Shown in pieces: positions 1,116-60,567 of a stretch of DNA of 64,000 nucleotides. The stretch lies in NCBI GenBank assembly GCA_942490685.1, contig CALNXW010000016.1, forward strand, positions 2,341,703-2,405,702. Reading direction: 5' to 3'. The notes beneath the pieces are model-generated. The model saw nothing but the letters and a program-made list of their open reading frames with translations. It ran no database searches and was not told the origin of the DNA. The position numbers and the translations under genes were made by a program. Numbering within the stretch: the stretch's first letter is position 1; every line of letters starts with the position of its first letter. The DNA is from an uncultured bacterium (lineage in GTDB: Bacteria; Bacteroidota; Ignavibacteria; Kapaibacteriales; UBA2268).

Positions 1116-1465
1116 CATATCTACATATTTTAAAATATAGCAATCATAAACTGCTTTAGTGAAGCAAATGGTTTAAAGACTCCTTTTTTAAAAGCGAGTC
1201 TTTTTTATTATAACTCTAAATATTTGCACTTCACTTTCAAAAAGCACCTCAAATAAAACAATTCTTATCAGATAATTCCTAATTATTTCATAAATATATT
1301 AAGTATGCACTGCATACTAAATCTTTTATTTTTTATCTTTTCAGATATATACCTATATTTGCATTCTATTAATAACAGCACATATCCTTTTTATTTATCT
1401 TCATCTATATTAAGATACAAAATTCGTTTTTATGATAAATTATCTACACTAATTGGAGTAATTCA

Positions 1466-2644: not shown

Positions 2645-2678
2645 GATATTTGTTTAAATTATAGCCGCAAAAGAATCT

Positions 2679-3806: not shown

Positions 3807-3956
3807 AGAATCTTATACTTTATATCCGATATATATTTTATTCAAAGGATTGAATTTTTATCCTTCCTGTTTGATATATGACAGACAGTTGTCACACATC
3901 AATACTTAAGTTTGTATAGTTATTTGAAACACTATATATAAACTTAGAGTACAACA

Positions 3957-4532: not shown

Positions 4533-4700
4533 AAAAGCAGTACTGAATTTCTCTATACAGCAGCGACATTTTATTTACTAAATGTCGCTTTTTTTGTAAC
4601 TCAATACAAATATTAACGTCTAATTTATCTTAAACAGTAAGTAATATTTTATTACTTATAAGCTTATTTATTTTGCAATATATATATATCTTTTATAACT

Positions 4701-5798: not shown

Positions 5799-5809
5799 GG
5801 AATAAAAAC

Positions 5810-6868
5810 ATGAAAAAACTAAGTTTAATATTGATTTTAGCTGCTGTGATTTTGGGAGTTTATGGGTGTAGTGAAGAATCTGAATCAAGAGATATACCAG
5901 CTAATTCACATAAATTAGAAATGTTAGGTGATAAAGAGCTTACGCTCTATTCCATTTATTACAATGATTATGATAACAACTATTATTTACTTGGATATGA
6001 CAGTGCAAATTATAAATATAATGTATACAAATCCGAAAATGATGGTAAAGATTTTGACTTATGTTTAACATTAGATGCTGACATTTACGAAAATCGACTA
6101 GTTCGACCTGATATTGTGATTGGTAAAGATGGATATGTTTTCCTTTCTACCTCAGGTATTTTGTTCAGATACCCTCCTGATTTATCCGAAAAAGTAGATT
6201 TAATAGAAACCGGAAAAAGTGCCGAAGGTTTAGAATCGCCTTACTTTAATCTACGCGGAGGTCATGGCTTAATTGCGGTAGATTCTGATGGAATCTTGTA
6301 TAAAGATTTAAAATATAAATCCACTGATAATGGACTAACATGGATTTTGGCAGCTGATGACAAAGACGATAAAGAAGAAAATGAAGATGATGGTTGGGCA
6401 GCTTCTTCTCCTCAATTACTTATAAAAAACAACATTTTACTATATTATTCCAGATCAATCCAACCTTCTTTTAAAATCAGTACTGACCAGGGTTATTCAT
6501 GGAGTGAAGAATTCCAGGTTAGTTCATCAATCGATTCTTTACACTGTGCTTTTTATGATATTCACAATATTACAAATGCTAACCCTAAACCTTTCATAAT
6601 TAAAAAACATGCTAAGGGCGATACAAAAGTAATCGGGATTGATAAATATGGCAATATCTTATCTGAAAAATTAGGGAGTAATATAGATTTTGACTATAAG
6701 TTTTACGATTCTAAATATACTTATATTTACTCTTCTAGTAATATGGGTGAAACTTGGAATTATCAATTTTATCTATTTGAGTATCAAAGATTTTTCACTC
6801 CATCTGGATACATATATTTTGAGACATGGGAACAAGGTATCAAACGCAATAAAACTCCACTTAAATAA
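5810..6868 (+). CDS. BNR/Asp-box lipoprotein, paralog 2
   Basis: Signal peptide plus lipobox MKKLSLILILAAVILGVYGCS. Asp-boxes at STDNGLTW, STDQGYSW and SSNMGETW. C-terminal GIKRNKTPLK. Confidence 0.65.
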   Translation: MKKLSLILILAAVILGVYGCSEESESRDIPANSHKLEMLGDKELTLYSIYYNDYDNNYYLLGYDSANYKYNVYKSENDGKDFDLCLTLDADIYENRLVRPDIVIGKDGYVFLSTSGILFRYPPDLSEKVDLIETGKSAEGLESPYFNLRGGHGLIAVDSDGILYKDLKYKSTDNGLTWILAADDKDDKEENEDDGWAASSPQLLIKNNILLYYSRSIQPSFKISTDQGYSWSEEFQVSSSIDSLHCAFYDIHNITNANPKPFIIKKHAKGDTKVIGIDKYGNILSEKLGSNIDFDYKFYDSKYTYIYSSSNMGETWNYQFYLFEYQRFFTPSGYIYFETWEQGIKRNKTPLK

Positions 6869-6880
6869 AGGAAAATTTGA

Positions 6881-7927
6881 ATGAAAAAACTAAGTTTAAT
6901 ATTGATTTTAGCTGCTGTGATTTTGGGAGTTTATGGGTGTAGTGACGACATCGATGGAATATCTCCTGTTAAAAGCGCAAATTCTGAAAAAGTAGAACAT
7001 GTGCTTAAACACTGTGCTTCGATAAGTATTATTGATTATAATAAAATGGAAGATACTTATTATATGATTGCCTTTGAATATAATTCTATGAAACTAATTT
7101 TATATACTTCTAAAACTGGTGAAGATTGGACACTTTTAAAAGATATGAGCAAAGATTACAAATATTTTGATCTTTTTAGAGGTGGAGAGGACATACAAAG
7201 CTTGAAGATGTCACAAAAAGGAAATCTATTTATCCAATACAAAAATACATTCTTCAGTGTTATGAATGATTTTGAAATATTAAACAATTTAAATTACTTA
7301 GCAAAGTATGAATACAAAGGCAATATTATTGTAGATTTTTCTGATATCAATATAGATGATGATGGCGTTATTTATTCAGGTTGCTATCTAAAATCAACTG
7401 ATGAAGGTTTTAATTGGACATTCATTGAAACTCCTTTCGAGAATGGTGATTATTTCTATAAAACTTATATCTACGGTAATATGATCATTGCTGATTTTAA
7501 AGATTGTATATGGAAAAGTGAAGATAAAGGCGAAACTTGGATTAAAGTGCTAGATAAAAAAACATCAGAGTCACCAACTGAGTTATATTATTACAAGCTA
7601 GAAAACATCCCTACAAATAAACAAGTCGAGTATAAAATTACCAGACCTGAAGAAGGCATATTCAATATTATAAAAATGCTCGACAATGGGCTTATAATTG
7701 CAAATTGGGAAGGATACAAAGAAAATGACTACTTCCCTGGTTATGCTAGTAATTGCAATATACACACTTCTACAGATAATGGCGAAACATGGAATTACGA
7801 ATTGAGCTTTATGGATACTTACACAAGTAGTTATAGTGGATCACCCGCAATTTATTATACAAAATCAGGTTACATTTATGCCAAAACAGGTGATGGTATA
7901 GTGCGCAATATAAAACCTATAAAATAG
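6881..7927 (+). CDS. BNR/Asp-box lipoprotein, paralog 3
   Basis: Its 5' 60 nt (signal peptide) are identical to paralog 2. Asp-boxes at STDEGFNW, SEDKGETW and STDNGETW. Confidence 0.65.
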   Translation: MKKLSLILILAAVILGVYGCSDDIDGISPVKSANSEKVEHVLKHCASISIIDYNKMEDTYYMIAFEYNSMKLILYTSKTGEDWTLLKDMSKDYKYFDLFRGGEDIQSLKMSQKGNLFIQYKNTFFSVMNDFEILNNLNYLAKYEYKGNIIVDFSDINIDDDGVIYSGCYLKSTDEGFNWTFIETPFENGDYFYKTYIYGNMIIADFKDCIWKSEDKGETWIKVLDKKTSESPTELYYYKLENIPTNKQVEYKITRPEEGIFNIIKMLDNGLIIANWEGYKENDYFPGYASNCNIHTSTDNGETWNYELSFMDTYTSSYSGSPAIYYTKSGYIYAKTGDGIVRNIKPIK

Positions 7928-7938
7928 AGAGAATCAAA

Positions 7939-8973
7939 ATGAAAAAACTCATTTTATTATTTATTATTTCAGTAGTTATGTTAGGTATTTCTGCATGCGA
8001 AGATGACTCTGTCCAACCGGATACATTTTCCAGTGCAGATAAATTAGAAATTGCATTTGAAGGCTATGACTTCATTTTAGATATATTCCAGAATAATTAC
8101 GATGACAATTACTACGCAATTTTGGTAAACAGAGATACTGTGCAATACAACATCTTTAAATCTACTGATCTTGGTGCAACATGGCAATTAGAGGATGTAT
8201 TTACAAAGTCAATGATTTCTCCTACATTGGATAAATTTTATGATACACCAACCATTATATACGGAAAAGATGATTATACTTTCTTTTATTTGCACAACAA
8301 AATATTCAGGAAAGCAAAAAATCAATCAAAATTTGATCTTTTAAACATTAAGATAGATACAGAAGATAGGACTTATTATGATCAATTTGGTTATCAGTTT
8401 AACTTTGTTGATAAAGATGGGATTCTATTTGCTTCAGATTTTGTTAAGTCTTCAGATAATGGGGAAACTTGGACAGATATCAACAAACCATATAACACAT
8501 CAGTATATTCAACAGCAATTGACAATTATATAGTTGTAAAAGCCGATAATTCTGAACCTGAATATCAATATTATGTCAGTGCTGATAAGGGAGAATCATG
8601 GACAGAATCAACTTTTGATTACTCTAGAAATGATAATAACTCTGAATACCTTAGGTTTTACAATGATGAATACATCGCATATAATTTAGAACCAAAGCAG
8701 ATTAAAAAGCCTAGCAAGGAAGAATTATATATATACGATATAACTAAGAACAATACTGTAATAGCTTACGAAACAGGATATTTTGATCATGACAAAGACA
8801 ATTTCGGTGATTTCAGCATCTATACGTCAAAAGATGACGGAGAAAACTGGAAATTCCATTTCTCTTTTGACAGTCGTACCGGAAGTTTTTACACTAAATC
8901 AGGCTACATCTATTTTAACTCAACAAGTTACAATTATCATGGTATCAAACGCAACAAAACTCCACTTAAATAA
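7939..8973 (+). CDS. BNR/Asp-box lipoprotein, paralog 4
   Basis: Lipobox GISAC. Asp-boxes at STDLGATW, SSDNGETW, SADKGESW and SKDDGENW. Highly similar to paralog 5. Confidence 0.65.
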   Translation: MKKLILLFIISVVMLGISACEDDSVQPDTFSSADKLEIAFEGYDFILDIFQNNYDDNYYAILVNRDTVQYNIFKSTDLGATWQLEDVFTKSMISPTLDKFYDTPTIIYGKDDYTFFYLHNKIFRKAKNQSKFDLLNIKIDTEDRTYYDQFGYQFNFVDKDGILFASDFVKSSDNGETWTDINKPYNTSVYSTAIDNYIVVKADNSEPEYQYYVSADKGESWTESTFDYSRNDNNSEYLRFYNDEYIAYNLEPKQIKKPSKEELYIYDITKNNTVIAYETGYFDHDKDNFGDFSIYTSKDDGENWKFHFSFDSRTGSFYTKSGYIYFNSTSYNYHGIKRNKTPLK

Positions 8974-8985
8974 AGGAAAATTTGA

Positions 8986-10020
8986 ATGAAAAAACTAAGT
9001 TTAATATTGATTTTAGCTGCTGTTATTTTGGGAGTTTATGGGTGCGACGAAGAGCCAAGTAGACCAAGCATATATTCCAGTGCAGATAAGATAGAAACTG
9101 CATTTGCAGGGTATGACTACATTGCAGATATTTTTCAAAATAACTACGATGATAATTATTATGCTATTTTGCTAAATCATGGCACAAAGCAATACGACAT
9201 TTTTAAATCCACAGATCTTGGTGCTACCTGGAAATTAGAAGATATATTCACGATGGATATGTTTGATTCAACGATGAATGCGTTTTATGATGCTCCCACC
9301 ATTATTTACGGGAAGGATGACTATGTTAATTTTTTTTCAGCACCTAATATTTATAGAAAACACAAAAGCGACTCAAAATTTAAAACTTTAAAAACTAAAA
9401 TAGTATCGGAAGACAGCACTTATTATTCGCAAATTGGATCTCAGTATAAATATATTGATAAAGACGGTGTCCTTTACGCTTCAGCTTACGCTAAGTCCTC
9501 AGACAATGGAGAGACCTGGATTAAGATTAAAAGACCATTTGATCATACATCTTTTTCAACAGCAATTGATAATTATATTATTATAGATGCAGAAATATCA
9601 ATCTCTGAATATAAATATTTTACAAGTTCTGATAAAGGTAAGTCATGGACAGGATCTACTTTTGATTATTCTCCGAATGAGAAGAACTCCAAATATTATA
9701 AATTTTACAATAACGAATATATTGCTTATAATAAAGAACCACGTCTGATTAAAAAACTGGAAATGGGCGACTTATATATTTACGATATAAACAGTAACAA
9801 CACTGTTATAGCGTCCAGATCAGGTTATTTTGAACACGAAGAAGACAATCATGGTTTATTCAGCATCTATACGTCCAAAGATGACGGAGAAAACTGGAAA
9901 TTCCATTTCTCTTTTGACAGTCGTACCGGAAGTTTTTACACAAAATCAGGTTACATTTATTTCAACTCTACAATGCGAGACTATCGTGGTATCAAACGCA
10001 ACAAAACTCCAATTAAATAA
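8986..10020 (+). CDS. BNR/Asp-box lipoprotein, paralog 5
   Basis: Same conserved signal peptide as paralogs 2 and 3. Its C-terminal 40 aa are nearly identical to paralog 4. Confidence 0.65.
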   Translation: MKKLSLILILAAVILGVYGCDEEPSRPSIYSSADKIETAFAGYDYIADIFQNNYDDNYYAILLNHGTKQYDIFKSTDLGATWKLEDIFTMDMFDSTMNAFYDAPTIIYGKDDYVNFFSAPNIYRKHKSDSKFKTLKTKIVSEDSTYYSQIGSQYKYIDKDGVLYASAYAKSSDNGETWIKIKRPFDHTSFSTAIDNYIIIDAEISISEYKYFTSSDKGKSWTGSTFDYSPNEKNSKYYKFYNNEYIAYNKEPRLIKKLEMGDLYIYDINSNNTVIASRSGYFEHEEDNHGLFSIYTSKDDGENWKFHFSFDSRTGSFYTKSGYIYFNSTMRDYRGIKRNKTPIK

Positions 10021-10100
10021 AATGTTTAATATCAAACCAAACAGCAGCAGAATCACTTAAATCCTGCTGCTGTTTTATTATAAAATAAATTATCATATTC

Positions 10101-12092
10101 CTATAAAGGTAATGTAAAATAGAACTGAGAGCCTTTGCCTTCTTGGCTTTCTACCCAAATATTACCACCATGTTTATCTACAAATTCTTTGCATAAGATA
10201 AGCCCCAGGCCTGTCCCCTTTTCATCGTTTGTGCCCGGCATGGATACCGATGAAGCCAATTTGAAAAGCTTACTTCTTACTTCCTCATTCATCCCAACTC
10301 CTGTATCAGCAATGCAAATTTGCACATAGTTTTTGTTTGCCTCAGATATTTCTTTAGAACTTATTACAATTTCACCGCCTTCTTCCGTGAATTTGATAGA
10401 ATTGGATATCAAATTTCTAAAAATGGTAGTAAGCATATTTATATCAGCATTTAAAGATATCTTAGAATCAAGATTATTTCTTATTTCTATATTTTTAGCA
10501 TTAGCTGCCAAGGATAAAGTATTTTTTACATTATTACACAAAAAGTCCAGGTTTACTTCTGTAGGATTAAAAGATATTTCACCTTTTTGAGAGCGCGACC
10601 ATTGCAGAAGATTCTCGATTAGGTTGACTAAGTTTTTGGAACTATTCCTCATTAATTCCAGATATTCTTTTTTATCAGCATCACTAAACTTATCAAAATC
10701 TGTATATAGCGAATCTGTCAGCATATTAAAACTGCCAATAGGGCTTTTTAGGTCATGCGCAATAATAGAAAAGAATTTATCTTTAAGCGAGTTAGATTTT
10801 TTAAGCTCAGTTTCTGACTCTTTTAATCTCTTAATGGCTAAAGTCCTTTCAGTGTTATCATGTGAAACAAGCAAAGCTCGGTTATTACTAATTTTGGAGA
10901 CACGTGCTTGGAACCACAGAAGCTTTTCGTTGATTTCTAAAGGATAATCAAAAGTCTGCACTTCACCAGTAGTAACTGCATCTCTAATGTTTTTGACGAC
11001 TAGGTCAGCTAACTCAATATTCAAAATATCATGAGCATATTTACCAATTAGCTCTTTCCTTGGCAAAATCAATAGAGATTCATTAGTAGGAGCAACATTA
11101 AGGTATTTTCCTTCCTCATTATATTCAATAATGATGTCATGCATAGCACCAAAAATAGCCTGCAGCTGTCTTTCATTTTCTTTAGCTTTAAGATATGTTT
11201 TAATAAGCAAACCGATTAGAGAAGAAATAAAAAGAGCACTTATGTATAGAAAGATAATAAGCGATTTATCAATCAGAGCAACCATATTCCATCCATTTTT
11301 AGGTACTGCGGCTATCAGCCAGCTACCGGTTGGCAAAGCCATTTCAATGATAACAGGATTTTGGTTAAAAAGTGTGGAATCACCCCAGAATACTTCCCCA
11401 TTGGCTCCGAGTCCATCCTTTCCCTTTATTGCATATCTAATCTCGCCTTCAGTGTCATAAAGTTTTGCTTCTTTTAGAAGATTATCTCTTCTGACTACTA
11501 TATCGGTAATTCCCCAGAAAGATCCCTCGTTTTTTCCGCTTTTGTAAAAAATCGGAGTATAGCTGACAAATGCTATTCCTCCTTCTACAAGCTCTACAGG
11601 TCCTGCAACAAATGTATTATGAGTCTCAATGGTTTTCTCAACGATTTCTCTTCTACCCGGGTGTGCCAGCAAATTAAGTCCAACTGCTTTTTCATGCCCT
11701 TTAAATGGATAGATAGAATTAATGATGCCGTTTTTTGCGATAGACATTGTGTTTATTGTCGAGTCCTTTTGAATTAGCTCTTTGGCAAGATCCTGAAAGA
11801 CCTGATGATTGATTTCTGGATTTAAAGAAATATAAGCCGCAACACCCTTGGTATAGTATATTCTGGAATAGAGAGCTTTCTCCAATAGAGATTTCTTGAA
11901 GCTGAGCATTTCATATACTTTCTCTCTTTCACTTTTCTTTATTTTACTCTGAGCGTATTCAGAGTATTCCATGATAGCCCATACGGAAGACAGTAAAATA
12001 GCAAATGCTATTAAGACTGGCATATAATTAGATAATTTCTTCTTCAACTTAGCCACAATTTCTTTTTCTAATATCAAAAAAAACAATAACAC
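10101..12092 (-). CDS. Sensor histidine kinase with extracytoplasmic sensor domain (orphan; no adjacent response regulator)
   Basis: An N-terminal TM segment is followed by a ~230-aa periplasmic region and a second TM. The PAS-like segment is followed by an H-box (IIAHDLKSPIG). HATPase_c N/G boxes are present (IVISSKEIS...GVGMNEE...GTGLGL). Confidence 0.8.
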   Translation of the reverse strand: MLLFFLILEKEIVAKLKKKLSNYMPVLIAFAILLSSVWAIMEYSEYAQSKIKKSEREKVYEMLSFKKSLLEKALYSRIYYTKGVAAYISLNPEINHQVFQDLAKELIQKDSTINTMSIAKNGIINSIYPFKGHEKAVGLNLLAHPGRREIVEKTIETHNTFVAGPVELVEGGIAFVSYTPIFYKSGKNEGSFWGITDIVVRRDNLLKEAKLYDTEGEIRYAIKGKDGLGANGEVFWGDSTLFNQNPVIIEMALPTGSWLIAAVPKNGWNMVALIDKSLIIFLYISALFISSLIGLLIKTYLKAKENERQLQAIFGAMHDIIIEYNEEGKYLNVAPTNESLLILPRKELIGKYAHDILNIELADLVVKNIRDAVTTGEVQTFDYPLEINEKLLWFQARVSKISNNRALLVSHDNTERTLAIKRLKESETELKKSNSLKDKFFSIIAHDLKSPIGSFNMLTDSLYTDFDKFSDADKKEYLELMRNSSKNLVNLIENLLQWSRSQKGEISFNPTEVNLDFLCNNVKNTLSLAANAKNIEIRNNLDSKISLNADINMLTTIFRNLISNSIKFTEEGGEIVISSKEISEANKNYVQICIADTGVGMNEEVRSKLFKLASSVSMPGTNDEKGTGLGLILCKEFVDKHGGNIWVESQEGKGSQFYFTLPL

Positions 12093-12157
12093 AATTTACA
12101 TTCTTTGACTTAAATATGTATCTTATATTTTAATCTCGTTGAACAGAGAAGCATCTG

Positions 12158-13441
12158 TCAAAAGCTTATTTGCTTTGTTTTCATAGATTTAAGCATTACA
12201 TATATTGACAATATAAGTAAGAATATTCCTACTGCAAACACGCCCGTGTAATCAAGATATTCTAATAGCCAAATACCAAATAGTGGACCAAATATTGCTC
12301 TAAAGCCAACCATTGATAGATGTATTGACTGATACTCTGCTGCATCTTCATTTTTGCAAAAATATGCTGAACCAATATTCCATAAAAGAGGCATTGTGCC
12401 CGCAAAAAGACCATTGAAAGTAAAAGATACTATCAATAGCCAGTAGAAAGTATATGCACCCCATTGAACGTTATATGGCATATATTCAGTTAGAGCCATA
12501 AAAAGTAAGTGCAATGCAAGAGTTGCAAAAGTGAATGCTCCAAATTTTCTGGGATCAATTTTATCAATGAGTTTCCCAAAAAACGGAAGGGAGACAATCG
12601 CTATTAGATTATAAGAATTTTTATAAAAAGCCAGGCTTTTATAACTTAGATCAAGCTCTTTTGCTAAAAACAGAGATATAACAGCCACGGTCATCATAAA
12701 AGACAATCCATAGAGCATAAAACCAAGCTCAAAATCTCTGTAAGGTTTATTTTTTTTGATTATGTTCAGAAGATTAGGAAAAGAAGCTTTTACAGAATCT
12801 AAAACAGACCTTTGTTTATCATGCCCCGCCATATAGTCTTTTTTAACAGCAGAAGAGAGAAGGAATACAGAAACTATACCAACAACCGCAATAAAAGGAT
12901 AGACATAAGTAAAGGCAAAATTATCAATTTCCAGAAGCTCCCCAAAAGTGAAGGTCGCAATAAGCATTATCACTTTATTTGCACTTGTTGCATAGCTGTA
13001 TAAAGTACCAAAATGCTCAGTTTTATAGTTATTCTTCAGTATACTGTTTATTATTGGATTTATTACCGGAAGAGCCAGATAGTAGCAGAGGAACATGCTA
13101 AGAAGTGCAGCATGAAAGAATATCATTTGATCTGGAGGAAGAAGCTCATTTGGGAAAAAAGCAGCACCTAGTAAAGGCAATCTGGTCAAAAGAGCTACTA
13201 TCCTTAGTATGTTTTTCTTTTTATACTTCTTGATGATCTCATGAATAAAAACGGAAAACACAAATACTATCATGCTAAACTGAAACAGCACTGCCAGTAA
13301 GAACTCAGAACCGTTCAAACTTTTAATAAATACGAATTCGTTTAAAACAACTACACCCAGCACTATGCCTTCTATTACAGAATAGATGAAATGAAGGATA
13401 AATATCTTTCTCTCATCTTTGCCCAGCTCTCTTAGTTTCAA
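12158..13441 (-). CDS. MFS-type transporter
   Basis: Multi-TM protein with the MFS pattern. The ORF track extends it to 13561, but that extension overlaps the tRNA at 13535-13607. The real start must lie downstream, possibly the TTG at ~13441 (LKLRELG...). Start uncertain. Confidence 0.55.
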   Translation of the reverse strand: MKLRELGKDERKIFILHFIYSVIEGIVLGVVVLNEFVFIKSLNGSEFLLAVLFQFSMIVFVFSVFIHEIIKKYKKKNILRIVALLTRLPLLGAAFFPNELLPPDQMIFFHAALLSMFLCYYLALPVINPIINSILKNNYKTEHFGTLYSYATSANKVIMLIATFTFGELLEIDNFAFTYVYPFIAVVGIVSVFLLSSAVKKDYMAGHDKQRSVLDSVKASFPNLLNIIKKNKPYRDFELGFMLYGLSFMMTVAVISLFLAKELDLSYKSLAFYKNSYNLIAIVSLPFFGKLIDKIDPRKFGAFTFATLALHLLFMALTEYMPYNVQWGAYTFYWLLIVSFTFNGLFAGTMPLLWNIGSAYFCKNEDAAEYQSIHLSMVGFRAIFGPLFGIWLLEYLDYTGVFAVGIFLLILSIYVMLKSMKTKQISF

Positions 13442-13534
13442 AATATTCTTCCCGTTTAATAGTAAATAGTATTTAAAATTGAACACATACAACGAAAAAA
13501 AGCAACTTCTTATTTTGAAGTTGCCTTTATTTTG

Positions 13535-13607
<73 letters not shown>

Positions 13608-13727
13608 GTGATTATGTGATACAAATATAGGTAAAATTTAGACAAAATAAAAATCTTTCTCGATAATTTCTTTTTTTTACTTTTTACTATATTACCGGAT
13701 ATTGAATATTATAATCTGAGAAATACA

Positions 13728-16700
13728 ATGGAATTTACCAGAGAGCAAAAATTAGCATTTACAGCTGACAGACACTTAGTAATAAGTGCAAACGCAGGAT
13801 CGGGTAAAACCAGAATTCTGGTGGAGAGATTTTTGCAGATTTTAGAGCATGAATCCACTCTCAATGATAACCCTGAAAATATTATTGCAATCACTTTTAC
13901 TAAAAAGGCTGCATCGGAAATGTTTGCCAGAATTATTAGCTCTTTAGGTAAAATGATTAAAGAAGAAAAAGATTCTGAGAAGCGATATAAATTCAGGCGA
14001 ATAAGATCTCGCATTTTCCAGGCTAAAGTATCTACAATACACAGCTTTTGCTGCAGTTTGCTCAGAGACTATGCTGTTGAAGCTGACATTTCTCCAAATT
14101 TTCAGGAGCTTAGCGAAACAGACAAATTTCTACTCTATAGAGACGCAAAACTAAATGCTATCGAAGATATAATAACAGAACAAAATAATGATTTGAGTTT
14201 AGAGTTTAAGGAACTTCTAAGCAGAAATAAGATGTATCTCATCGAATCAATTATCGATACTATCTTAGCTAACAGATATGAATATATGCAGATGAAAGAA
14301 CTCTTCGATGAAGAGAGTCACAACCCTTTCGAAGCTAAAGAAAACAATCAAATTATTAAATCTGTTTTTGATAGATATAGAAAAGGGATTCTTCTCATTC
14401 TGAATGCGCTGAAAAATATTAGCATAGAAGATCTTACTGCAAAAGAGGGCAAGGACTTGCCTATAATCCAATCTTCTGTCTTGCCAAAGGCTGAAACAGA
14501 AATAAACAATTACGATGACAACCCTATAGAAGCTCTTAGAAACTGTCTTGAATCTATGGCATTGGACAAAAAAATTGGGAGATCTCTCTGGTACAAACTA
14601 GTCACTAAGAAAACGAGCTACTCTGCCAAAGAAGAAGAACAAATAGAAGCTACTATAAAATTGATAGAAAAAGACATTAAAGCTTTCAATAATACCTCAG
14701 CAAATGAAAACTTCCCTCATTTACAAAAGGCTGTATACCATTTTATTGACCATCTTTTATATATCGCTGATAAAGAAAAGGAAGAAAGAGGACTTTTAGA
14801 TTTTGATGATTTAATATTGCGCGCAAAGTCCTTACTTAGTGATCCAAATATCAGAGATATGGTTATGGCAAAGGTGGATCATATAATGGTAGATGAGTTC
14901 CAGGATACAAACCAATTGCAATATGACATCCTACAGGATTTAATTCCCGAACTAAAGCAATATGCTCCCGAAACAAATACTAAGGCGAACTTATTTATTG
15001 TCGGCGATGGGAAGCAGAGTATCTATGCATTCAGAAACGCTGATGTCAGAGTATTTAATGCAGCATCAGCAAGAATAGCAGAACTTAACAGTAAAAAGAT
15101 GGCAGCTGGCAAGCTTATTACTAATATGGTCAACTTCCAAGGGGAGCACCTTGACTATATCGATAATGAAAACAACGGAATGCTCTCTCTAAACGCATCA
15201 TTCAGACTCTCCCCTGTTGTAGCTGCATTTGTAAATAAAATTTGCGGCAGTATCATGGATACATCTGTCTCAGAGTTTGAAGTAGCTTATGAAGACCTGG
15301 TTTTTGCTAAAAACAGTTCTGCCATTAAAAAAGAGATATCAGACAGATTCCCACACTACCTCTTTGATTCACCAAATCAAATTTTTGAAGCCGATGATTC
15401 GAGACACGGATCTGTTGCATTTGTAATTCATAAGGAAGAGAAAGAAGACGAAATTGAAGAAGAAACTGAATCTGCTGATAAACTTGAGGCAACAAAGCTA
15501 ATCAGGTATATCAAATCTAAAATTAAAGGTAAAGAGCCATATCAAGTATTTGAAAATGACACCTTTAGAAATGCTGATTATAAAGATGTAGGTATACTAA
15601 TTCGCTCCAGAAGTAAATTAAGCGAGCTAATGAATGCATGTATAGAAGAAAAAGTACCATTTGTACTTCATGCAGGCTCAGGGCTATATCAATTGCAGGA
15701 AGTGCAGGACATGATTGCACTACTAAAATTTTTGTATAATCCTAATGATGACATTGCATGCATAGGTGTTTTGCGTTCCCCATTTTTTGCCCTGTCTGAC
15801 AAAGAATTATATAATATCTATCAAGCAGAAAAACATGACACTTTCTGGAATAAGGCCATACGTTATTCAACAAATAAAGAAGCTACCAAAACTTTTACAG
15901 AAGCATTCCAATACCTTCGGAAAATACTTTCTGTCAGCGGCAGACTCTCTCCTACTGAATTAATAAGCAAACTCATCTATGATAGAGCGTATTTCGAAAA
16001 AATATCCGAAGATAAAGCTATAGATCAGATTAAAGCTTCAATAGAAAAATTTGTTTCTCATATCCGAGGATTTGAAGAAAAAGGCTTTGCAGATATTTAT
16101 GATCTTATGCAAGAACTGAATCTTCTGCTTGAAATCAGCAGTGACGGAGAAGCTTCTGTATCTTCTGAAAATGCTATAAACATAATGACATTCCATGCTT
16201 CTAAAGGACTTGAATTCCCTATTGTTGCTCTTTATGGCACAAACAACAAAACCGGAAGACCAAGCAGCGTTTACTTTACTAAAAACTTTGGTGTAGCTTT
16301 CAAAGATAAAAGAGTCAATGAAGCTACAGGGCTGCTGGAACCAGTAGATAATATTTACACTCTGATCAGCAGAGAACTGAAAAATCAAGCTGAAGATGCT
16401 GAAGATAAAAGACTCTTATACGTGGCTTTGACCAGAGCTAAAGATCATCTGATCATATCTGCAAATATTTCTCATACCAGCAAAAAAGTAGTTACCCTTC
16501 AATCTTTTGCTAAAAATATTTTTGATGTTCTTCTTAGTGAAAATACACAGGATTATTCAGGTAATTCTCTCTATAAAACATTCTACGAAAGTGAGCTTTC
16601 TCAAGCGAATATAACAAAACAAGAGCTTTCATTTTTGGAAAATAATGAGCTCAATAATATGTTGATTGCATATCATATTCCATTTATTTACGAAGTTGAG

Positions 16701-50996: not shown

Positions 50997-51673
50997 ACAA
51001 GGAACTCCTAAACGTAATAAATGTATAAAAATGTCGTATATTGAGATCGTTTTAAATTCTGTCAGGGAAAGCGTATAATTCCCGTCCTCAAATTAACAAA
51101 ATTTTTTACAAATATCCACATCTTATATACAGAATCCGAATATTAAATAGGATTTCATTTACAAAGCTAAGTCTATTAAATTTGAGACATTTGAAAATAT
51201 TTCTATACTATCCTATAAACTCAATATAATTTGTTACTTCTTATATTTCGTATACTAATTTTAGTTTTATGTAATCTTATTTAAAATTCAAAATATTCGT
51301 AATGCTTATTTTAGAAGGATGTACATCTTCATCAGTGAAGAGATACTAGTTAAGGCAACCTATGTGGTGTGTTGAGAATAACCAGCATTTAGCTTGTAGT
51401 TATTTGTAGTGCTATCTGTAAAAATTACAAAACACACTCATAATAAAAATAGAGATAATTTATTCATTTTATTTTTCTATATTCGTTAACATAATAGATA
51501 TAATCATTCTTTTAAATTTTCTAGAATTTTCATTTGTATTCTTGAAAATTGAGTGTTTACACCCCACTGATAACGCGTTGAATATTAAGAGTACTTCTAT
51601 GTTTAGACAAATTCGAAATGAATAATGAGGTCAAAAAACAAACTAACTTCGTTCCTTTAGAATGTGTTTAAAA

Positions 51674-52303
51674 CTATTTTATTTCTAGGCTTCCACGATC
51701 CACTTTATCTTGTATCCTTGTTAAATGGAAGGACAGTTTAAATAGGAAAAGATACGCACCATAATCACTTAGAGTAAATAATTTTGAAGAATTTAATTTA
51801 TCTCTCGAATACTTCTTATTACTATGATTATTAATCCTATCCAGGAATACGATAGAATCATCTATTACATCTTCGAACTTTGGTAAATAAAATATTTGTG
51901 TAATTTCTTGTCTTTTTATTGATCCTACATGTTGTTTAATTGCTTCTTCTGGCTTCTCATTTTTTATTAGTATATCTTGATATTTCTTCAAGTTAAAGAT
52001 AGGTGCATAAATAATATGAGAAGGAAAGAATCGTTTGTTTGCTAAATCCATATCGCATGTGTTCGATATTACCATACAAGGAGCTTCTTTAATTGTAGTG
52101 TCAGGGAGATTAACAACTAGCAAATTGTTCAATCCATCACCTTGATATATGACATTATCCCCAACTAGATTCTTAGAATAAATTCTTTTGTCCATATTTT
52201 CAGGGAATCTTGACAATTCCTGATAAAGGATTCTCTCTGAATTCGAAGATAAATACTTCGGTAAATATAACTGTAAATCCTCTAAAGTCATATCAAATCC
52301 CAA
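51674..52303 (-). CDS. Hypothetical protein, third gene of an overlapping three-gene operon
   Basis: 209 aa, no recognisable motif. Its start overlaps the upstream gene by 16 nt. Confidence 0.5.
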   Translation of the reverse strand: MGFDMTLEDLQLYLPKYLSSNSERILYQELSRFPENMDKRIYSKNLVGDNVIYQGDGLNNLLVVNLPDTTIKEAPCMVISNTCDMDLANKRFFPSHIIYAPIFNLKKYQDILIKNEKPEEAIKQHVGSIKRQEITQIFYLPKFEDVIDDSIVFLDRINNHSNKKYSRDKLNSSKLFTLSDYGAYLFLFKLSFHLTRIQDKVDRGSLEIK

Positions 52304-52593
52304 AAATTGTCATCTACGATATCAATTATATCTGGATCAATATCTTTTGTATTGCTTATTAGTTTTTGAGCAAAAGTTACAATTGTCTCAGATTTATCAT
52401 GTTTAGAAAAAGCATCATAATCGTAAGTTTTAAAACCATTATCATTCCATTTGGAAATATCAGCCAATCTTTCTGCATTATAATCTGCATGTTGTGCCAC
52501 TTCTGTAATATTTGCTTCATACGGCAACGGAGTCACACATGTACTAGCAGTTACAGTAAGGAAAAACAAATTTTGTTTTGTTATTAACTCCAT
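52288..52593 (-). CDS. Hypothetical small acidic protein, middle gene of the three-gene operon
   Basis: 101 aa with an acidic C-terminus (DIDPDIIDIVDDNFWDLI). Its start is 2 nt from the upstream stop. Confidence 0.45.
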   Translation of the reverse strand: MELITKQNLFFLTVTASTCVTPLPYEANITEVAQHADYNAERLADISKWNDNGFKTYDYDAFSKHDKSETIVTFAQKLISNTKDIDPDIIDIVDDNFWDLI

Positions 52594-52594
52594 T

Positions 52595-53299
52595 TCAATA
52601 CTCCGGATTTAGTGTATTCAAAAAATCTTGATTCAATAGATTATAAAAGACAGATTTTTCAGTATCATGTATTAAAGAAATCAAGTTCTCTTTCTTAACA
52701 AAAAAATTCGATACATCATTAATTGAAATTGTATCGATGTCTATAAATGAACCCTGTTTTCCATCGTATTCCTGGTTGTTAGCAATTTGTAAAATGCTTT
52801 TAAATTGCTCTTCTACTATTTCAGTTTTAATCACAGTATTTTTATAATTAATTGGTTCCTGTTTTAGCGAAATATTCAAATCAATATTTTCAAAAATATT
52901 ATTTTCGAAAAAATTGATGTATCGAAGCCCTATTCTTTCAACATTATTAATTATGTTTAGAGTCTTTACTTCATCAATAATACTGATTATTTCGGAAAAT
53001 AGTGCATTCCAACCCAAATATTTAGGATAACAGCTTATACTTAAAACTTCTGGACCAATTTGAACAGCCAGTTGAGAGTTTGCAATTTTATAATGAGGTT
53101 TAAACCTAAAGTTAGGATCTTTTGCTCTTAGAGCCTCTGGAATCTGTAAAATTGGTAAATTTTCAGCATTCGGGAACTTGTCCTGTAAAACACCATATAT
53201 CATACCAAAAATTGCATTTGAAGGAATTCTTGATGTAAACCTTAGTTCAAAAAGAGCTTCTATAATTGGACATGGCTGTATTGATTTTGGATTGCCCAT
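52595..53299 (-). CDS. Hypothetical protein, first gene of the three-gene operon
   Basis: 234 aa. The N-terminal PIIEALFELRF is reminiscent, from memory only, of the uncharacterised TIGR04255 family. No catalytic motif recognised. Confidence 0.5.
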   Translation of the reverse strand: MGNPKSIQPCPIIEALFELRFTSRIPSNAIFGMIYGVLQDKFPNAENLPILQIPEALRAKDPNFRFKPHYKIANSQLAVQIGPEVLSISCYPKYLGWNALFSEIISIIDEVKTLNIINNVERIGLRYINFFENNIFENIDLNISLKQEPINYKNTVIKTEIVEEQFKSILQIANNQEYDGKQGSFIDIDTISINDVSNFFVKKENLISLIHDTEKSVFYNLLNQDFLNTLNPEY

Positions 53300-53452
53300 G
53301 ATAACCAGTTTTATTGTTTATAAATACTTTCTTGTAACAATATACGAATTAGTATAATAAATCGTACAAAATGGGGATAAATAGTACCAAATCTTTAAGG
53401 CATAGTACGATTTAGATTAAAAAAAGGTTCATAAACAAACCAAAAGTATAAA

Positions 53453-53746
53453 ATGTTTTTTTCCACAAAGCATCCTGAATTTTGTAGTTCTTTTCTTTCC
53501 TTTTCTGAGCGTTATCACACAATTCAAAAGATATTTCAAACTTATCTTGGTAAAATTCAAGTATATCAAAAATTTAAAATATTTGATATGGGTATGATTA
53601 TCTATGTAAATGGAAAAGAAAGGTTTGTTGTCACAGAAGTTGAAAGATCCATCGACATATCAAATTTGGAATCAGGTGTTTATTTCTTGATAATAGTTGA
53701 TAATCTAGGAAATCCTTATCGTTCCAAATTTATAGTAGAAAGATAA
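53453..53746 (+). pseudogene. Remnant of a T9SS-CTD protein gene (C-terminal sorting domain only)
   Basis: The last ~50 aa (IYVNGKERFVVTEVERSIDISNLESGVYFLIIVDNLGNPYRSKFIV) match the T9SS CTD. The upstream part is unrelated, non-secreted-looking sequence. Confidence 0.5.
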
Positions 53747-53790
53747 ATTTATCCACTGAACGGGATAGACTAACTAAAATACAGCAAAAA

Positions 53791-53850
53791 GAAGTGGGTC
53801 AACCTCCCACTTCTATTATATATATATTTGCGTGTGGGAATTCCTCCCAC
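53791..53850. terminator. Tandem hairpins between convergent lexA and the CTD remnant
   Basis: GAAGTGGG-tcaacct-CCCACTTC is a perfect 8-bp stem. GTGGGA-attcc-TCCCAC is a 6-bp stem. T-runs follow on the lexA (minus) strand. Confidence 0.6.
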
Positions 53851-53856
53851 TATCAT

Positions 53857-54492
53857 TTAGATTTTACTGAGTTTACCCACAATTACCCCCAATATTTGCA
53901 AATCGGGTTCTGTGTCACCATTTATTACTGAAAATCCTTTTCCTGCCGGGTGAAGCTCAAAGCCGAATAAGTTGCTCACATACTCTCTTACTATGTACCG
54001 CTCCCCTATTTTCGCGGCTATAAGTTTTCCGTTTTCAGGTTCAACCGATTTATCTACAATAACAACATCCCCCGGCGAAAGATCTTTTTTCAGCATTGAT
54101 TTGTCTATAATAAAGATAGCGAGAGCTTCGCCTGATAAACCGAAATAAGTTTTATCTACAGCCATGGCAGCACCTGTATACTCTTTCGGCGTATTGTACA
54201 ATTTTAGCCCTTCTGTTTGCTTGATAGCCACCTCTTCAGTGGTTTTTCTTCCGGCTTTTTTAACAATTTTTATACCACGGGAAGCCCCTTTGGCAATCCT
54301 TTTGATATATCCTTTTTTCTCTAATGCAGTAAGCACCTGATGCACTCCATTAGTGGATGCAAAGCCGAATTCATTGCATATATCCTTGATTGTAGGCGGC
54401 ATATTATCGCGCTTTATGATGCGTTTGATAAAATTGAGTATCTCTCTTTGCCTGTCTGTGAGCTGGTTTTTCTTTCTTCTACCGACTGCCAT
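53857..54492 (-). CDS. lexA: LexA-type repressor (winged-helix LexA DNA-binding domain plus S24 self-cleaving peptidase domain)
   Basis: The N-terminus LTDRQREILNFIKR...GVHQVLTALEKKGYIKR...SRGI matches the LexA DNA-binding domain. The C-terminal S24 domain has a Ser-Lys dyad context (IIDKSM ... GKLIAAKI). Confidence 0.85.
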   Translation of the reverse strand: MAVGRRKKNQLTDRQREILNFIKRIIKRDNMPPTIKDICNEFGFASTNGVHQVLTALEKKGYIKRIAKGASRGIKIVKKAGRKTTEEVAIKQTEGLKLYNTPKEYTGAAMAVDKTYFGLSGEALAIFIIDKSMLKKDLSPGDVVIVDKSVEPENGKLIAAKIGERYIVREYVSNLFGFELHPAGKGFSVINGDTEPDLQILGVIVGKLSKI

Positions 54493-56308: not shown

Positions 56309-57058
56309 TTATAAATAAAAACTATTATATATGCTTGAAGGAAATTCCTGCCATACCTGGCCATCAATTTCTTTTCCATTGGACTTTTTATTTCGCTTAA
56401 TTTTATCAGCTCCCCAAGTACCCCATTGTTTGAAGAAGAATGCTACATTTTTCTTCTCGCATTGTTGTTTAATATTTAGTACCCATTCTTTATCCATTGG
56501 TCTGGCTTGTACCCCACTTTCACCACCAACAATGACCCAATCTATTCCTTCAAGATTTAACTCTCCTAAATCCTCCAATAGAGGTTCCACTGAAAGAAAT
56601 TTTACTGATGCTTTCATATCTCTAAGATAATCGATTCTTGGTATGCCTTCTTTTCTATTTTCGACAGTTACTCCTAGCCAAATATTTTTGGGAATACTTC
56701 TTTGAGTTAAGTATTCTGCCATAGCTTTAGCACGCTTAGTTAGAATCTGATAAGTATGTTGAGGAGTGTTTTCTATTACATCAAAAATTTGATCCAGATA
56801 TTCTTTTGGCATTTTTTCGTGGAAAATATCACTCATTGAGTTCACGAAATATACTGTAGGCTTCTTTCTTTTATAAGGATCTAATAATCTACTTGGTACA
56901 AGTTGAAACTCAAAACCATTTTCATATCCTTCGACATTCATTGCTTTAAGCCTTCTAGCCATAGTTTCTGCATAGCAGTTTTTGCATCCTGAACTCACTT
57001 TTGTGCATCCGGCTGACGGATTCCAAGTTTGTTCAGTCCATTCTATTTTATGAGCCAT
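56309..57058 (-). CDS. Phage Gp37/Gp68-family (DUF5131-like) three-Cys-motif protein
   Basis: The probable start M29 (MAHKIEWTEQTWNPSAGCTKVSSGCKNCYAE) gives ~250 aa. W-N-P followed by C-x6-C-x2-C matches the family signature as I recall it. The ORF track extends the start to 57142. Confidence 0.6.
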   Translation of the reverse strand: MAHKIEWTEQTWNPSAGCTKVSSGCKNCYAETMARRLKAMNVEGYENGFEFQLVPSRLLDPYKRKKPTVYFVNSMSDIFHEKMPKEYLDQIFDVIENTPQHTYQILTKRAKAMAEYLTQRSIPKNIWLGVTVENRKEGIPRIDYLRDMKASVKFLSVEPLLEDLGELNLEGIDWVIVGGESGVQARPMDKEWVLNIKQQCEKKNVAFFFKQWGTWGADKIKRNKKSNGKEIDGQVWQEFPSSIYNSFYL

Positions 57059-57177
57059 GATTCTTTCCCCCCCAGGTGTGAATTTTGAATCTATTTTGGC
57101 AAAATTATCAATATTATTTTTAAAGGCGATTGAAAAACACAATATTGCAAGTCTTTTTAAAACAATAAAGTTGTATT

Positions 57178-58305
57178 TTATTTTTTTTCTTGTAATATAA
57201 ATCGTACCTTTCTTTTATCATTACCAATATAATTCCCCTTATTAGAGCCTTTATCTAATGATATGACTTCCAATCTTTTTTCATTATTGAAAGTTTTTAA
57301 AATCTCATTAGTATGTTTTGGCAACATATCATTTTTTAATCCAAATTCAAAAAGATCATGATTAGTTACTATCTCTGTATTTGTCAAATATTCTTCAAGT
57401 TTGTCTTTATATGTAATTTTTTTTAAACTGAATAATTGCGTTGTTTTATTTTGATTATATCCTTTGCCTTCTTCATTGTCCATTTTCCATTTTGCTTCAA
57501 GCATAGCTTTATGCCCCTGTTTATTTGGAGAAAAGAACATCAAACAATAGAATTTATTTGTTTCCTTTTCAATGTGAAAGTAAGAAATCCAACGATTGGG
57601 AAATTTTGATTTGAAGCGATTACTTAAGCTTTCTATGAACACTAATGCTGACGTATGTTGTTTTAATTTCTCTGGAAAAAGATAATCAATCAATTTCTTT
57701 AATGGCAAAAAACCTTTGTTTTCTTTTTCTTGAACGGTGTATGCAAACCTATACATTTGATCTATTGGTAGAAAAAGCAAAAGCTCGGCTTTATCATTAT
57801 TTAAAACTTTTTCTAGAAAATCTATAGTTATATCTTTGTATCCAAATGGATCTATAAATAAAAGTGCACGTTCATTTTTTTTCAATCCATATAGACTAGA
57901 CAATACTTTAGGAATTAATTCTGTAAACTCTCGCCTTGTAAACTTATATTCTACTTTAGGATTTTCAAATCTTGAAACACAAAAATTTTGGACACGTTCA
58001 ATTTTCCATTTGTCTTCTTCTATTGTAGACTTTTGACTATCATTAAAATGGAAATAAATATTAGGTATAGATTTAAATTTTTCTAAATGTTCCTTTACAA
58101 CATTAACAGCTATCAATGGACTACCTTCTTGGCTATCTTCATAAATACCTTCACCTGCGAATAAATCATATAAATACACATTCTTAATATTTTTCGCATA
58201 ATCTACGATATTTAGATATACAGATAAATAATATTTATAAAGCTCGACTTTAGCAACTGAATGTGACGGTAGTATTGCAGAATCTCCTTTCTTTTTCACT
58301 TTCAT
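57178..58305 (-). CDS. Putative three-Cys-motif partner protein (TcmP-like), co-oriented immediately upstream of the Gp37/Gp68-like gene
   Basis: 375 aa, 36-bp gap to the downstream gene. Size and genomic pairing fit the TcmP (TIGR04474) / DUF5131 pair. Sequence-level membership could not be verified without an HMM. Confidence 0.4.
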   Translation of the reverse strand: MKVKKKGDSAILPSHSVAKVELYKYYLSVYLNIVDYAKNIKNVYLYDLFAGEGIYEDSQEGSPLIAVNVVKEHLEKFKSIPNIYFHFNDSQKSTIEEDKWKIERVQNFCVSRFENPKVEYKFTRREFTELIPKVLSSLYGLKKNERALLFIDPFGYKDITIDFLEKVLNNDKAELLLFLPIDQMYRFAYTVQEKENKGFLPLKKLIDYLFPEKLKQHTSALVFIESLSNRFKSKFPNRWISYFHIEKETNKFYCLMFFSPNKQGHKAMLEAKWKMDNEEGKGYNQNKTTQLFSLKKITYKDKLEEYLTNTEIVTNHDLFEFGLKNDMLPKHTNEILKTFNNEKRLEVISLDKGSNKGNYIGNDKRKVRFILQEKK

Positions 58306-58710: not shown

Positions 58711-59241
58711 TTGAAGAAACTATATTACTTCTATTCTCCAATTGTTTTTGATATTATTAATATGGAACTAAATAATAAGATTTGGCATGTAACTTGGGTT
58801 ACTCGTAATAGTCGTATCAGTGAAAGAATGATACTGGCGCGAGTAAAGCTTGAGAATCCAGTCACACTGACTGATGAAATGCGTAATATTGTTGCAGAAA
58901 GTATCAAATTAAAGATTAAAGAAGAATCAATAAAGATTTATGCTCTTAATGTTCTAATGGATCATGTTCATATTATAATTCAATCGTCTGAAACTGAACT
59001 TGAAGAAATTGTGCGTAAGTTAAAAGGCTATTCCTCTTATCAAATATCCAAAACTTTGGGTTACACATCAAAAGGTCAAGGCAAACAAACTAAAATCTGG
59101 GCTACCAGCTTCAGCAAAACTTTAATCAGAGATAAAAAGCATCTTTTAGAATCAATCAACTACATTAAAAATAACCACCTAAAACATAATGTTACTCCAT
59201 GTAAAGCACTCTTGTTTTTCTCACAGAGTCCAATAAAGTAA
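58711..59241 (+). CDS. HUH-family Y1 transposase (IS200/IS605 TnpA-like; REP-associated tyrosine transposase candidate)
   Basis: HuH motif HVHIIIQ. Conserved KGYSSYQIS and a C-terminal catalytic Tyr context (SINYIKNNH). The real start is probably M18 (MELNNKIWHVTW), giving ~159 aa. Confidence 0.75.
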   Translation: MKKLYYFYSPIVFDIINMELNNKIWHVTWVTRNSRISERMILARVKLENPVTLTDEMRNIVAESIKLKIKEESIKIYALNVLMDHVHIIIQSSETELEEIVRKLKGYSSYQISKTLGYTSKGQGKQTKIWATSFSKTLIRDKKHLLESINYIKNNHLKHNVTPCKALLFFSQSPIK

Positions 59242-59694: not shown

Positions 59695-60567
59695 ATGATT
59701 GATCTAAACACAGTTAAGGTTCTATACAAATATAGAACTTTTGAGAGCAAATTTGACAGACGTCTACTTTGGCTTAACGAATTATTTTTTGCCAAGAAGC
59801 ATATGCTGAATGATCCTTTCGACTTAGGACTTGAGCCTGATTATTCTCAGACAACAAAAGATCAATGGTGTAAAGTGGCATTAAGAAGTATCAATTCAAA
59901 TCAAGTGTTATCAGATAACCAGAGAGTAAAACTTCTAAAAGAAGAAATAATAAAAATTGATAATGGGACGAGTGATTTGCAAAAGAATCACAAAGAAGCA
60001 ATTTTTGGAAATGCACGAAATGAAAATAAGGAATTCAAAGAAGGAAAGATAAACAAAATGTGCATTCTTTCTCTTGTTGCTGACAACCCAACTAATTCTC
60101 TAATGTGGGCACATTATTCATCCTCACACCAAGGTTTTTGTATAGGATATAACGCCACTGAGCTTTTTAATTATCTTACAACATTGAAAGACCAACATGA
60201 ATTTACTCAATTAGCTGTAAAGTATAAAGACTATTATCCTAAAGTAAATCCATTAACTAGCACAGAATTTTATCTAGACCTACTCTACACAAAATCTATT
60301 GAATGGGATTATGAAGATGAAGTGAGGATAATCAACGAAACCACACATCCGAACCATAATAATGGATTTGCAATTTACTATCCAAATAAACTTGTTCGTG
60401 ATATAACCTTAGGCTTATATTGTTCGGAAGAGAACAGAAACATGGTCGTTAATCGTATTAATGAAATGAATTCACTCCACAATCTTTCTATAAAATTGTA
60501 TCAAATAACAAAAGAAGATTATTCCTACGAGTTTAAAAGAAAAGACATTTCGGAACTCTTAAGTTAA
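59695..60567 (+). CDS. Hypothetical protein, DUF2971-like
   Basis: 290 aa. The N-terminal LYKYRTFES...LNELFFAKKHMLNDPFD resembles the conserved N-terminal block of DUF2971 proteins, from memory only. Confidence 0.4.
   Translation: MIDLNTVKVLYKYRTFESKFDRRLLWLNELFFAKKHMLNDPFDLGLEPDYSQTTKDQWCKVALRSINSNQVLSDNQRVKLLKEEIIKIDNGTSDLQKNHKEAIFGNARNENKEFKEGKINKMCILSLVADNPTNSLMWAHYSSSHQGFCIGYNATELFNYLTTLKDQHEFTQLAVKYKDYYPKVNPLTSTEFYLDLLYTKSIEWDYEDEVRIINETTHPNHNNGFAIYYPNKLVRDITLGLYCSEENRNMVVNRINEMNSLHNLSIKLYQITKEDYSYEFKRKDISELLS

Follow-up and report, generated by a model that had tools for sequence, protein, structure and literature searches.

A mobile three-gene cassette led by a TIGR04255-family protein in an uncultured Ignavibacteria genome is a candidate undescribed conflict system

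Organization of the locus

We examined a 64,000-bp stretch of DNA (referred to throughout as the window) from an uncultured bacterium of the Kapaibacteriales (GTDB lineage Bacteria; Bacteroidota; Ignavibacteria; Kapaibacteriales; UBA2268), which corresponds to positions 2,341,703 to 2,405,702 of contig CALNXW010000016.1 in assembly GCA_942490685.1. An original prediction, made by reading the window without database searches, had pointed to a compact block of three genes next to lexA as a candidate undescribed system. We find that these genes, designated here A, B and C, constitute an autonomous, horizontally mobile three-gene accessory module with the order A-B-C, and we consider below the evidence that it may act in conflicts between bacteria and phages. 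All coordinates are those of the window.

All three minus-strand open reading frames (ORFs) were confirmed from the ORF list and the sequence, and they lie where they had first been placed, with small corrections only. Gene A (52595–53299, minus strand) codes for a 234-aa TIGR04255-family protein and is the constant first gene of the module. Gene B (52288–52593, minus strand) codes for a small, acidic and fast-evolving protein of 101 aa, a putative adaptor or inhibitor, and gene C (51674–52291, minus strand) codes for a protein of 205 aa when read from its ATG, a member of an orphan family and a putative effector. The TGA stop codon of A (52597–52595) is followed by one nucleotide and then by the B ATG at 52593, such that the A-B spacing is 1 nt and not the 2 nt reported initially. 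A B-C overlap of 16 nt had also been described; this holds for the maximal C ORF (51674–52303, 209 aa), which begins with a TTG at 52303, but because more than 1,200 C homologues are ~205 aa long we assign the start to the ATG at 52291, and the overlap of the B stop codon with this ATG is then the 4-nt sequence ATGA. A, B and C are real genes and not chance ORFs, since A has at least 447 homologues, C homologues form 1,206 clusters at 90% identity, and B can be detected in most loci.

The cassette has a GC content of 0.296, as compared to 0.39–0.42 in nifJ, lexA and mraZ-rsmH, and 0.343 for the window as a whole. On the nifJ side it is bordered by a 677-bp AT-rich spacer in which the only ORFs are of 32 aa or less, so the ORF-free region of about 670 bp reported there is real. 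No Rfam match or tRNA was found in this spacer.

Recent acquisition by replacement

Close relatives are represented by two long contigs (L100 and L101), which share ~90% nucleotide identity with the window in rsmH-mraZ-lexA and in nifJ, as determined by blastn and alignments. Neither contains the cassette; between lexA and nifJ they instead carry genes for a 727-aa protein with a type IX secretion system (T9SS) sorting signal and a DUF5685 protein, together with a 78-aa ORF. Homology to both contigs stops at 53586 and resumes at 51197, from which we conclude that the cassette was gained recently by replacement. The cassette has thus been recently inserted between lexA and nifJ in this genome. 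The inserted segment (51198–53585; 2,388 bp) consists of the cassette with 286 bp of upstream and 476 bp of downstream non-coding DNA, and it took the place of 3,677 bp present in the relatives.

A junction alignment shows that the last ~53 codons of the gene for the 727-aa T9SS-sorted protein survive as a truncated scar at 53586–53746 (plus strand), and the ORF called at 53453–53746 is a chimera. The scar gives a weak Por_Secre_tail match, and the gene is intact in both L100 and L101. The decayed T9SS remnant noticed earlier beside the cassette is therefore genuinely a Por_Secre_tail remnant, although it is the scar of this insertion and not general mobile debris. The GC content of the insert is 0.281; because the replaced segment of the relatives is also AT-rich (0.308), this lends modest support to a foreign origin. 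Inspection of the insert ends revealed no target duplication, credible direct or inverted terminal repeats, integrase, tRNA or Rfam match, and its non-coding flanks matched nothing at any other cassette locus.

Distribution and conservation of the cassette

A pattern scan of one genome per species (185,579 representatives) yielded 88 matches, and 80 loci were retained; these figures are a lower bound. The order A-B-C is present in ~80 species-level genomes spanning more than ten phyla, with identities of 40–61%, and the co-occurrence of the three families, proposed at the outset as a check, is therefore borne out. The hosts belong to the Bacteroidota, Ignavibacteriae, Spirochaetota/Leptospirales, Desulfobacterota, Gammaproteobacteria, Campylobacterota, Verrucomicrobiota, Planctomycetia, Fibrobacterota, Gemmatimonadales and Cloacimonadota, and also include a Methanococcoides bin.

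The same order and coupling are seen in 72 of 79 genome loci, and most of the exceptions are contig ends. Wherever there is sufficient upstream DNA, C is preceded by A at a distance of ~1 kb and by an intervening ORF the size of B, the few exceptions being divergent or degraded; at one locus (L077) the A and B positions are occupied by a 246-aa ORF and a B-like protein. The B stop and C start codons overlap as ATGA in 61 of 77 loci, and the commonest spacing between A and B is 1 nt (23/77). The pairwise identities of the three proteins are correlated with one another (rho 0.64–0.75). The description of the block as an isolated, translationally coupled operon of unknown proteins is supported.

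We found no fourth conserved gene in the flanks, the next-largest flank cluster being present in five loci only, and the cassette has mutually unrelated surroundings in Thermophagus, Flavobacterium, Xiashengella and several metagenome genomes. Conserved synteny with housekeeping neighbours, which would have marked the block as part of the core genome, is not what we observe: close relatives are without the cassette and its neighbours differ in every genome. We note that in Xiashengella succiniciproducens (CP098400.1; locus L090) the cassette lies amid many small unannotated genes in a stretch (686–15680) that is flanked by a group II intron reverse transcriptase gene and an rve-family transposase gene, and which looks variable and mobile.

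The three proteins

Protein A matches the NCBIfam hidden Markov model (HMM) TIGR04255 with a score of 123.7 bits (E 1.1e-35; cutoff 30), in an alignment that extends over A residues 8–231 and profile positions 3–252 of 252. The original prediction thus named the right family, although the likeness is full-length and not vague as it was thought to be. The same model is matched by each of the 37 A-type proteins tested (drawn from genomes, phages and a plasmid-like record), and A also matches phrog_5464. TIGR04255 is an uncharacterised family ('sporadTIGR04255' in NCBIfam), and a search of the open-access full-text literature found no paper on TIGR04255, CHP04255, IPR026349 or the PHROG identifiers. 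New for this family here are its obligate B-C partners, its alternative downstream modules and its location in a phage hotspot.

The AlphaFold2 (AF2) model of A is confident, with a predicted local distance difference test (pLDDT) score of 92.7, and the predicted fold comprises two beta-alpha-beta(3-4)-alpha repeats that form one curved sheet. Foldseek searches with this model preferred the S-adenosylmethionine decarboxylase (AdoMetDC) prozyme and the TATA-binding protein (TBP), with template-modelling (TM) scores of only 0.26–0.34. Across guanidino-kinase or glutamine-synthetase (GS)-like and TBP or AdoMetDC-like folds, identity is 4–14% at these same TM scores, a resemblance of fold only. 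Because the TM scores are so low we do not take A for a kinase, and treat its predicted fold as a TBP/GS-like sheet platform. Sequence and profile searches of the PDB with A gave nothing below an E value of ~0.1. A cluster of charged residues is at least 90% conserved over 73 diverse members, comprising E18, R20, R122, R126, D187 and D189 on the strands together with H211 and K215 on the C-terminal helix.

Protein B gave no family match in Pfam, NCBIfam or PADLOC, and a word-based search with B found only B itself. It was nonetheless detected in most loci by synteny, tblastn and HMM searches, and it occupies the same position in nearly all of them. Every B has a ~16-aa uncharged, hydrophobic, Ser/Thr-rich segment beginning near residue 11, followed by a variable middle region and a conserved acidic C-terminal helix that ends in NFWDL(I/L). 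The median isoelectric point (pI) is 4.3 and the net charge -8.5. B is the fastest evolving of the three proteins, with a median pairwise identity of 25% versus 40% for A and 49% for C.

Homologues of protein C in all 1,206 clusters are ~205 aa long, and in a representative library C also matches 868 clusters at 50% identity. Among the C matches listed, 150 of 150 are single-domain proteins of ~200 aa or shorter. Residues Q50-G-D52, N77, C79-D80, Q128, K185, H189 and R192 are invariant among 55 diverse members. C matches phrog_4575, and no Pfam, NCBIfam, PADLOC or PDB relation was found, even with profiles or with member-wise scans of the 55 diverse members; the PDB sequence and profile searches gave nothing below an E value of ~0.1. 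The AF2 model of C is of low confidence (pLDDT 43.5). Two candidate identities were rejected for C, a Toprim domain like that of AriB (hhalign probability 0.3%) and a MazF/Kid-like barrel (hhalign probability <1%; a weak test). Over the diverse members of A, B and C no Pfam or NCBIfam family recurs besides TIGR04255 for A.

Alternative modules behind TIGR04255

Examination of metagenome loci containing A showed that C is present at the expected position in 44 of the 56 with enough downstream DNA. The other 12 have a close A (~40–46% identity) followed by different gene sets, and altogether at least four other downstream modules are found behind close A homologues in metagenomes. One alternative set consists of a small protein and a 177–186-aa distant homologue of C (hhalign probability 82%, E 1e-5), in which the QGD and SxxCD motifs align with those of C. 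Further sets include two unrelated two-gene modules and one single 184-aa gene, and in phage SNW-1 A is followed by two unrelated small genes that represent one more set. The alternative middle proteins have an uncharged hydrophobic start in five of the six module types read. Conflict systems typically show this pattern, in which one gene stays constant and its partners are exchanged.

The alternative modules lie downstream of the TIGR04255 gene in metagenome contigs L141, L182, L166, L148, L152, L155 and L183; examples are a 185–199-aa protein with one of 160–171 aa, a 163-aa protein with one of 122 aa, and the single 184-aa protein. PDB searches with the alternative third-gene proteins of L141 and L166 gave no match. 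Together these modules represent an unexplored family of TIGR04255-led operons.

Carriage by phages and plasmids

Pseudomonas phage Dobby, a P2-like member of the Peduoviridae, carries complete A, B and C genes directly beside its portal gene. The cos-proximal region of P2-like phages, which runs between gpA and gpQ (portal), is an experimentally supported defence hotspot that contains old and tin (PMC9122126); at the equivalent defence locus of P4 satellites, six of eight unknown loci picked at random were reported to give protection against phage (PMC13586616). In Pseudomonas phage VW-6S, A and C lie between the cI repressor and integrase genes, and an ORF of 46 aa takes the place of B. The cassette is complete in four of five IMG/VR contigs, the fifth being cut by the contig end, and it is located beside the integrase gene (L095, L099), beside a CI-like repressor gene (L097) or near an anti-repressor gene (L098). 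In Dobby, VW-6S and the IMG/VR contigs it is thus found at the accessory or hotspot positions by which defence systems are recognised. Both A and C have PHROG families (phrog_5464 and phrog_4575), of unknown function.

Two annotations in these phages are probably in error. The TIGR04255 gene of Dobby (MK034952.1; 1030–1854) is annotated from 1483 as a 124-aa product, and the homologous A ORF begins near 1117 (~245 aa); in VW-6S (MF975720.1; 4858–4998) the name 'integrase' is given to the 46-aa ORF that takes the B position.

The cassette was found in only one of 72,556 plasmid records. This sole carrier is OY726032.1 (3591–5321), a 14,960-bp circular record from Phocaeicola massiliensis that has no annotation and is classed as non-mobilizable; it could represent either a small circular element or a fragment of an assembly.

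Interpretation

Our best reading, to which we give roughly even weight, is that the cassette is an undescribed conflict system that would act in anti-phage defence, in superinfection exclusion or by abortive infection. Two independent lines of evidence support the view, with which this work began, that the genes are a candidate undescribed system: carriage by temperate phages at lysogeny and hotspot positions, and the swapping of modules behind TIGR04255. The PHROG membership of A and C and the rarity of the cassette on plasmids also count in favour of a conflict or defence role. Somewhat less probable is a more specific version, in which A-B-C would be a widespread undescribed anti-phage system that gives TIGR04255 a first function, as the constant sensor or regulator of modular systems with swappable effectors, and C would have a new effector fold with a QGD/SxxCD/K-H-R active site.

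Gene order, coupling, co-inheritance, conservation patterns and modularity are direct observations, and from these we infer a model for the binding, triggering and chemistry of the three proteins. The cassette would be expressed both from chromosomes and from prophages. Protein A may be a cytoplasmic beta-sheet platform with a conserved charged face, serving as the constant sensing or regulatory subunit and possibly as an enzyme. B would be an adaptor or inhibitor whose uncharged N-terminal segment docks on A, the constant partner, and whose acidic, family-specific C-terminal helix holds C, the variable partner. The ATGA overlap would ensure that C, the putative effector, is produced in stoichiometric amounts with B, and the invariant residues of the C motifs QGD, SNxCD and K-x3-H-x2-R could form an active site. 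A trigger, such as a phage product or the loss of B, may then release or activate C. This division of labour draws on the alternative modules behind A, on the uncharged hydrophobic start of most of the alternative middle proteins, and on the acidity and rapid evolution of B.

Several observations weigh against a defence role. The argument for it draws on phage placement and modularity, and the resistance phenotype is putative; a position within prophages is also compatible with lysogenic conversion or counter-defence. Neither the window proteins A, B and C (PADLOC-DB v2.0.0) nor the phage versions of the cassette proteins (PADLOC v2) gave a significant match to known defence proteins, and among 111 diverse members of the three families PADLOC v2 gave four single-member matches only, the best being to PD-T4-9_B (5.7e-05). 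Adjacency to known defence genes, an expectation of the original prediction, is weak: raw counts of the nearest gene on each side at ~68 loci show three type III methyltransferases and three ResIII proteins among 131 immediate neighbours (~3 of 131 being type III restriction-modification genes), and the remainder are housekeeping genes, which is a weak defence-island signal. The role of C as effector is an assumption, because its AF2 model has so low a pLDDT. Finally, the uncharged segment near the N-terminus of B may instead serve as a signal peptide or membrane anchor, which would place the B C-terminus outside the cell and break the adaptor model.

Should the cassette prove to act in defence, the prokaryotic immune repertoire would gain a new module of broad phylogenetic range, and two orphan families, TIGR04255 (phrog_5464) and the C family (phrog_4575), would acquire a role. 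The cassette is also experimentally tractable: it is present at classical hotspots in P. aeruginosa phage Dobby and in Pseudomonas phage VW-6S, so that lysogens with and without it are directly comparable.

Alternative explanations

The strongest of the alternatives, which we nevertheless consider unlikely, is that the cassette is a selfish toxin-antitoxin or addiction module with no part in phage defence, either tripartite or a pair with an accessory gene, where B would be a labile acidic antitoxin acting against the toxin C, and A would serve as chaperone or regulator. The arrangement of B and C is certainly reminiscent of type II systems, with a small acidic gene product encoded directly upstream of the putative toxin and coupled to it through the 4-nt ATGA overlap in 61 of 77 loci, and with a third gene as in toxin-antitoxin-chaperone systems or in defence modules of the MqsRAC type. 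The low pI and rapid evolution of B fit as well, as do the sporadic, horizontally transferred distribution and the occurrence of the cassette as solitary islets among housekeeping genes. Searches of Pfam, NCBIfam and PADLOC, however, detected no helix-turn-helix, ribbon-helix-helix or AbrB antitoxin and no known toxin family, and B is without a recognisable DNA-binding domain. Addiction modules are typically abundant on plasmids, where this cassette is nearly absent (1/72,556 records). A toxin-antitoxin pair also does not readily account for the 234-aa A protein, which is as conserved as the B-C pair and stays constant when the downstream genes are swapped. Many toxin-antitoxin systems act in phage defence, and because of this the explanation overlaps with the conflict system that we favour.

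Slightly less probable again is that the module benefits the phages that carry it, through counter-defence, control of lysogeny or lysogenic conversion, and that chromosomal copies are prophage remnants. Its position in the lysogeny modules and accessory slots of temperate phages, and the membership of its proteins in PHROG families of unknown function, speak for such a role. Most genomic copies, on the other hand, are solitary, with no phage genes nearby and no recurrent flank family; the insert in the window is exactly the cassette with ~760 bp of non-coding DNA and no other phage gene, and the cassette is intact in many non-prophage contexts across phyla.

We regard as highly improbable an ordinary housekeeping or metabolic operon that is poorly annotated, in which A is a guanidino-kinase or GS-like enzyme. 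Foldseek TM scores of 0.26–0.34 offer no support for a guanidino-kinase, and nothing assigns the cassette to metabolism, a homology that would have overturned the original prediction. The cassette was recovered in only ~88 of 185,579 species representatives by the pattern scan, itself a lower bound, sister genomes are without it, its neighbourhoods are random, and phages carry it.

The proximity to lexA had prompted the suggestion of a functional link to the SOS response. The lexA gene (53857–54492, minus strand; Pfam LexA_DNA_bind and Peptidase_S24) lies outside the module, is canonical, and is conserved in relatives without the cassette. The tandem hairpins noticed beside it are confirmed: a terminator scan places two of them after the lexA stop codon (53790–53850, minus strand), with a common stem GTGGGAGG/CCTCCCAC. 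Stem matches are at 53794–53810 and 53834–53850, the pattern being found twice versus 0.07 times expected, and the promoter-distal hairpin (53814–53790), which has a T-run after it, insulates the cassette from lexA transcription. Both hairpins are within the region conserved with the relatives; a 52-nt copy of the hairpin element is present elsewhere in the relatives' locus (L101, 13058–13109), and may be a repetitive extragenic palindromic (REP)-like or terminator repeat. Upstream of A we found none of ten published types of LexA operator (motifs from PMC8565304), the operator of this lineage not having been identified, and no palindrome common to this region and the lexA promoter.

Nor did lexA turn up in the gene calls or the recurrent flank families at the other cassette loci examined, and the adjacency is thus particular to this locus, where it arose through the insertion that replaced three ancestral genes. 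It is incidental, and a functional link of the cassette to lexA or the SOS regulon is not supported. A LexA- or SOS-controlled stress operon, for which only the co-orientation of the cassette 557 bp downstream of lexA speaks, is largely refuted by the hairpins, the failure to find a known operator and the recent insertion, and is the least probable explanation of all. The locus is a clean example of a small accessory cassette that replaces core-adjacent genes, and illustrates how insertion alone can bring genes next to lexA.

A further accessory insertion, independent of the first, lies ~3 kb from the cassette at 56309–58305 (minus strand; GC content 0.30), where the gene for a DUF5131 protein (PF07505, 361.6 bits) lies beside that for a 375-aa protein with no Pfam match. 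L100 and L101 are without this pair, and there rsmH is followed by genes for a Y1 transposase, an aminotransferase and a peptidase M49. An IS200-like Y1 transposase gene (58711–59241, plus strand) and a gene for a DUF2971 protein (59695–60567, plus strand) belong to the same variable region to the right of rsmH.

Comparison with known systems

The cassettes reported at the P2-like cos/portal hotspot include old, tin, DUF4238, 'hp+hp+hp' (Rst_3HP) and DprA-PRTase (Rousset et al. 2022, PMC9122126). Rst_3HP is the obvious candidate, in that the Dobby cassette occupies the same slot by the portal gene and likewise specifies three proteins with no recognisable domain, although Dobby infects Pseudomonas and the hotspot was characterised in P2-like phages of E. 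coli. We rejected identity with Rst_3HP: A, B and C (234, 101 and 205 aa) are much shorter than its proteins and, by inspection, unrelated to them in sequence. The newer P4 systems Crouga, Bandua, Aernus, Toga, Reve and Hailong were rejected on their domain content.

The cassette, with all three of its components uncharacterised, is best classed among mobile defence or conflict cassettes. It differs from cyclic-oligonucleotide-based anti-phage signalling systems (CBASS), Lamassu, Avs and the phage anti-restriction-induced system (PARIS) in that A, B and C have no homology to their components and contain no nucleotide cyclase, ATPase or known effector domain, the AriB Toprim domain giving an hhalign probability of 0.3% against C. 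In its logic it nonetheless resembles them, for a constant A protein is combined with at least five downstream gene sets.

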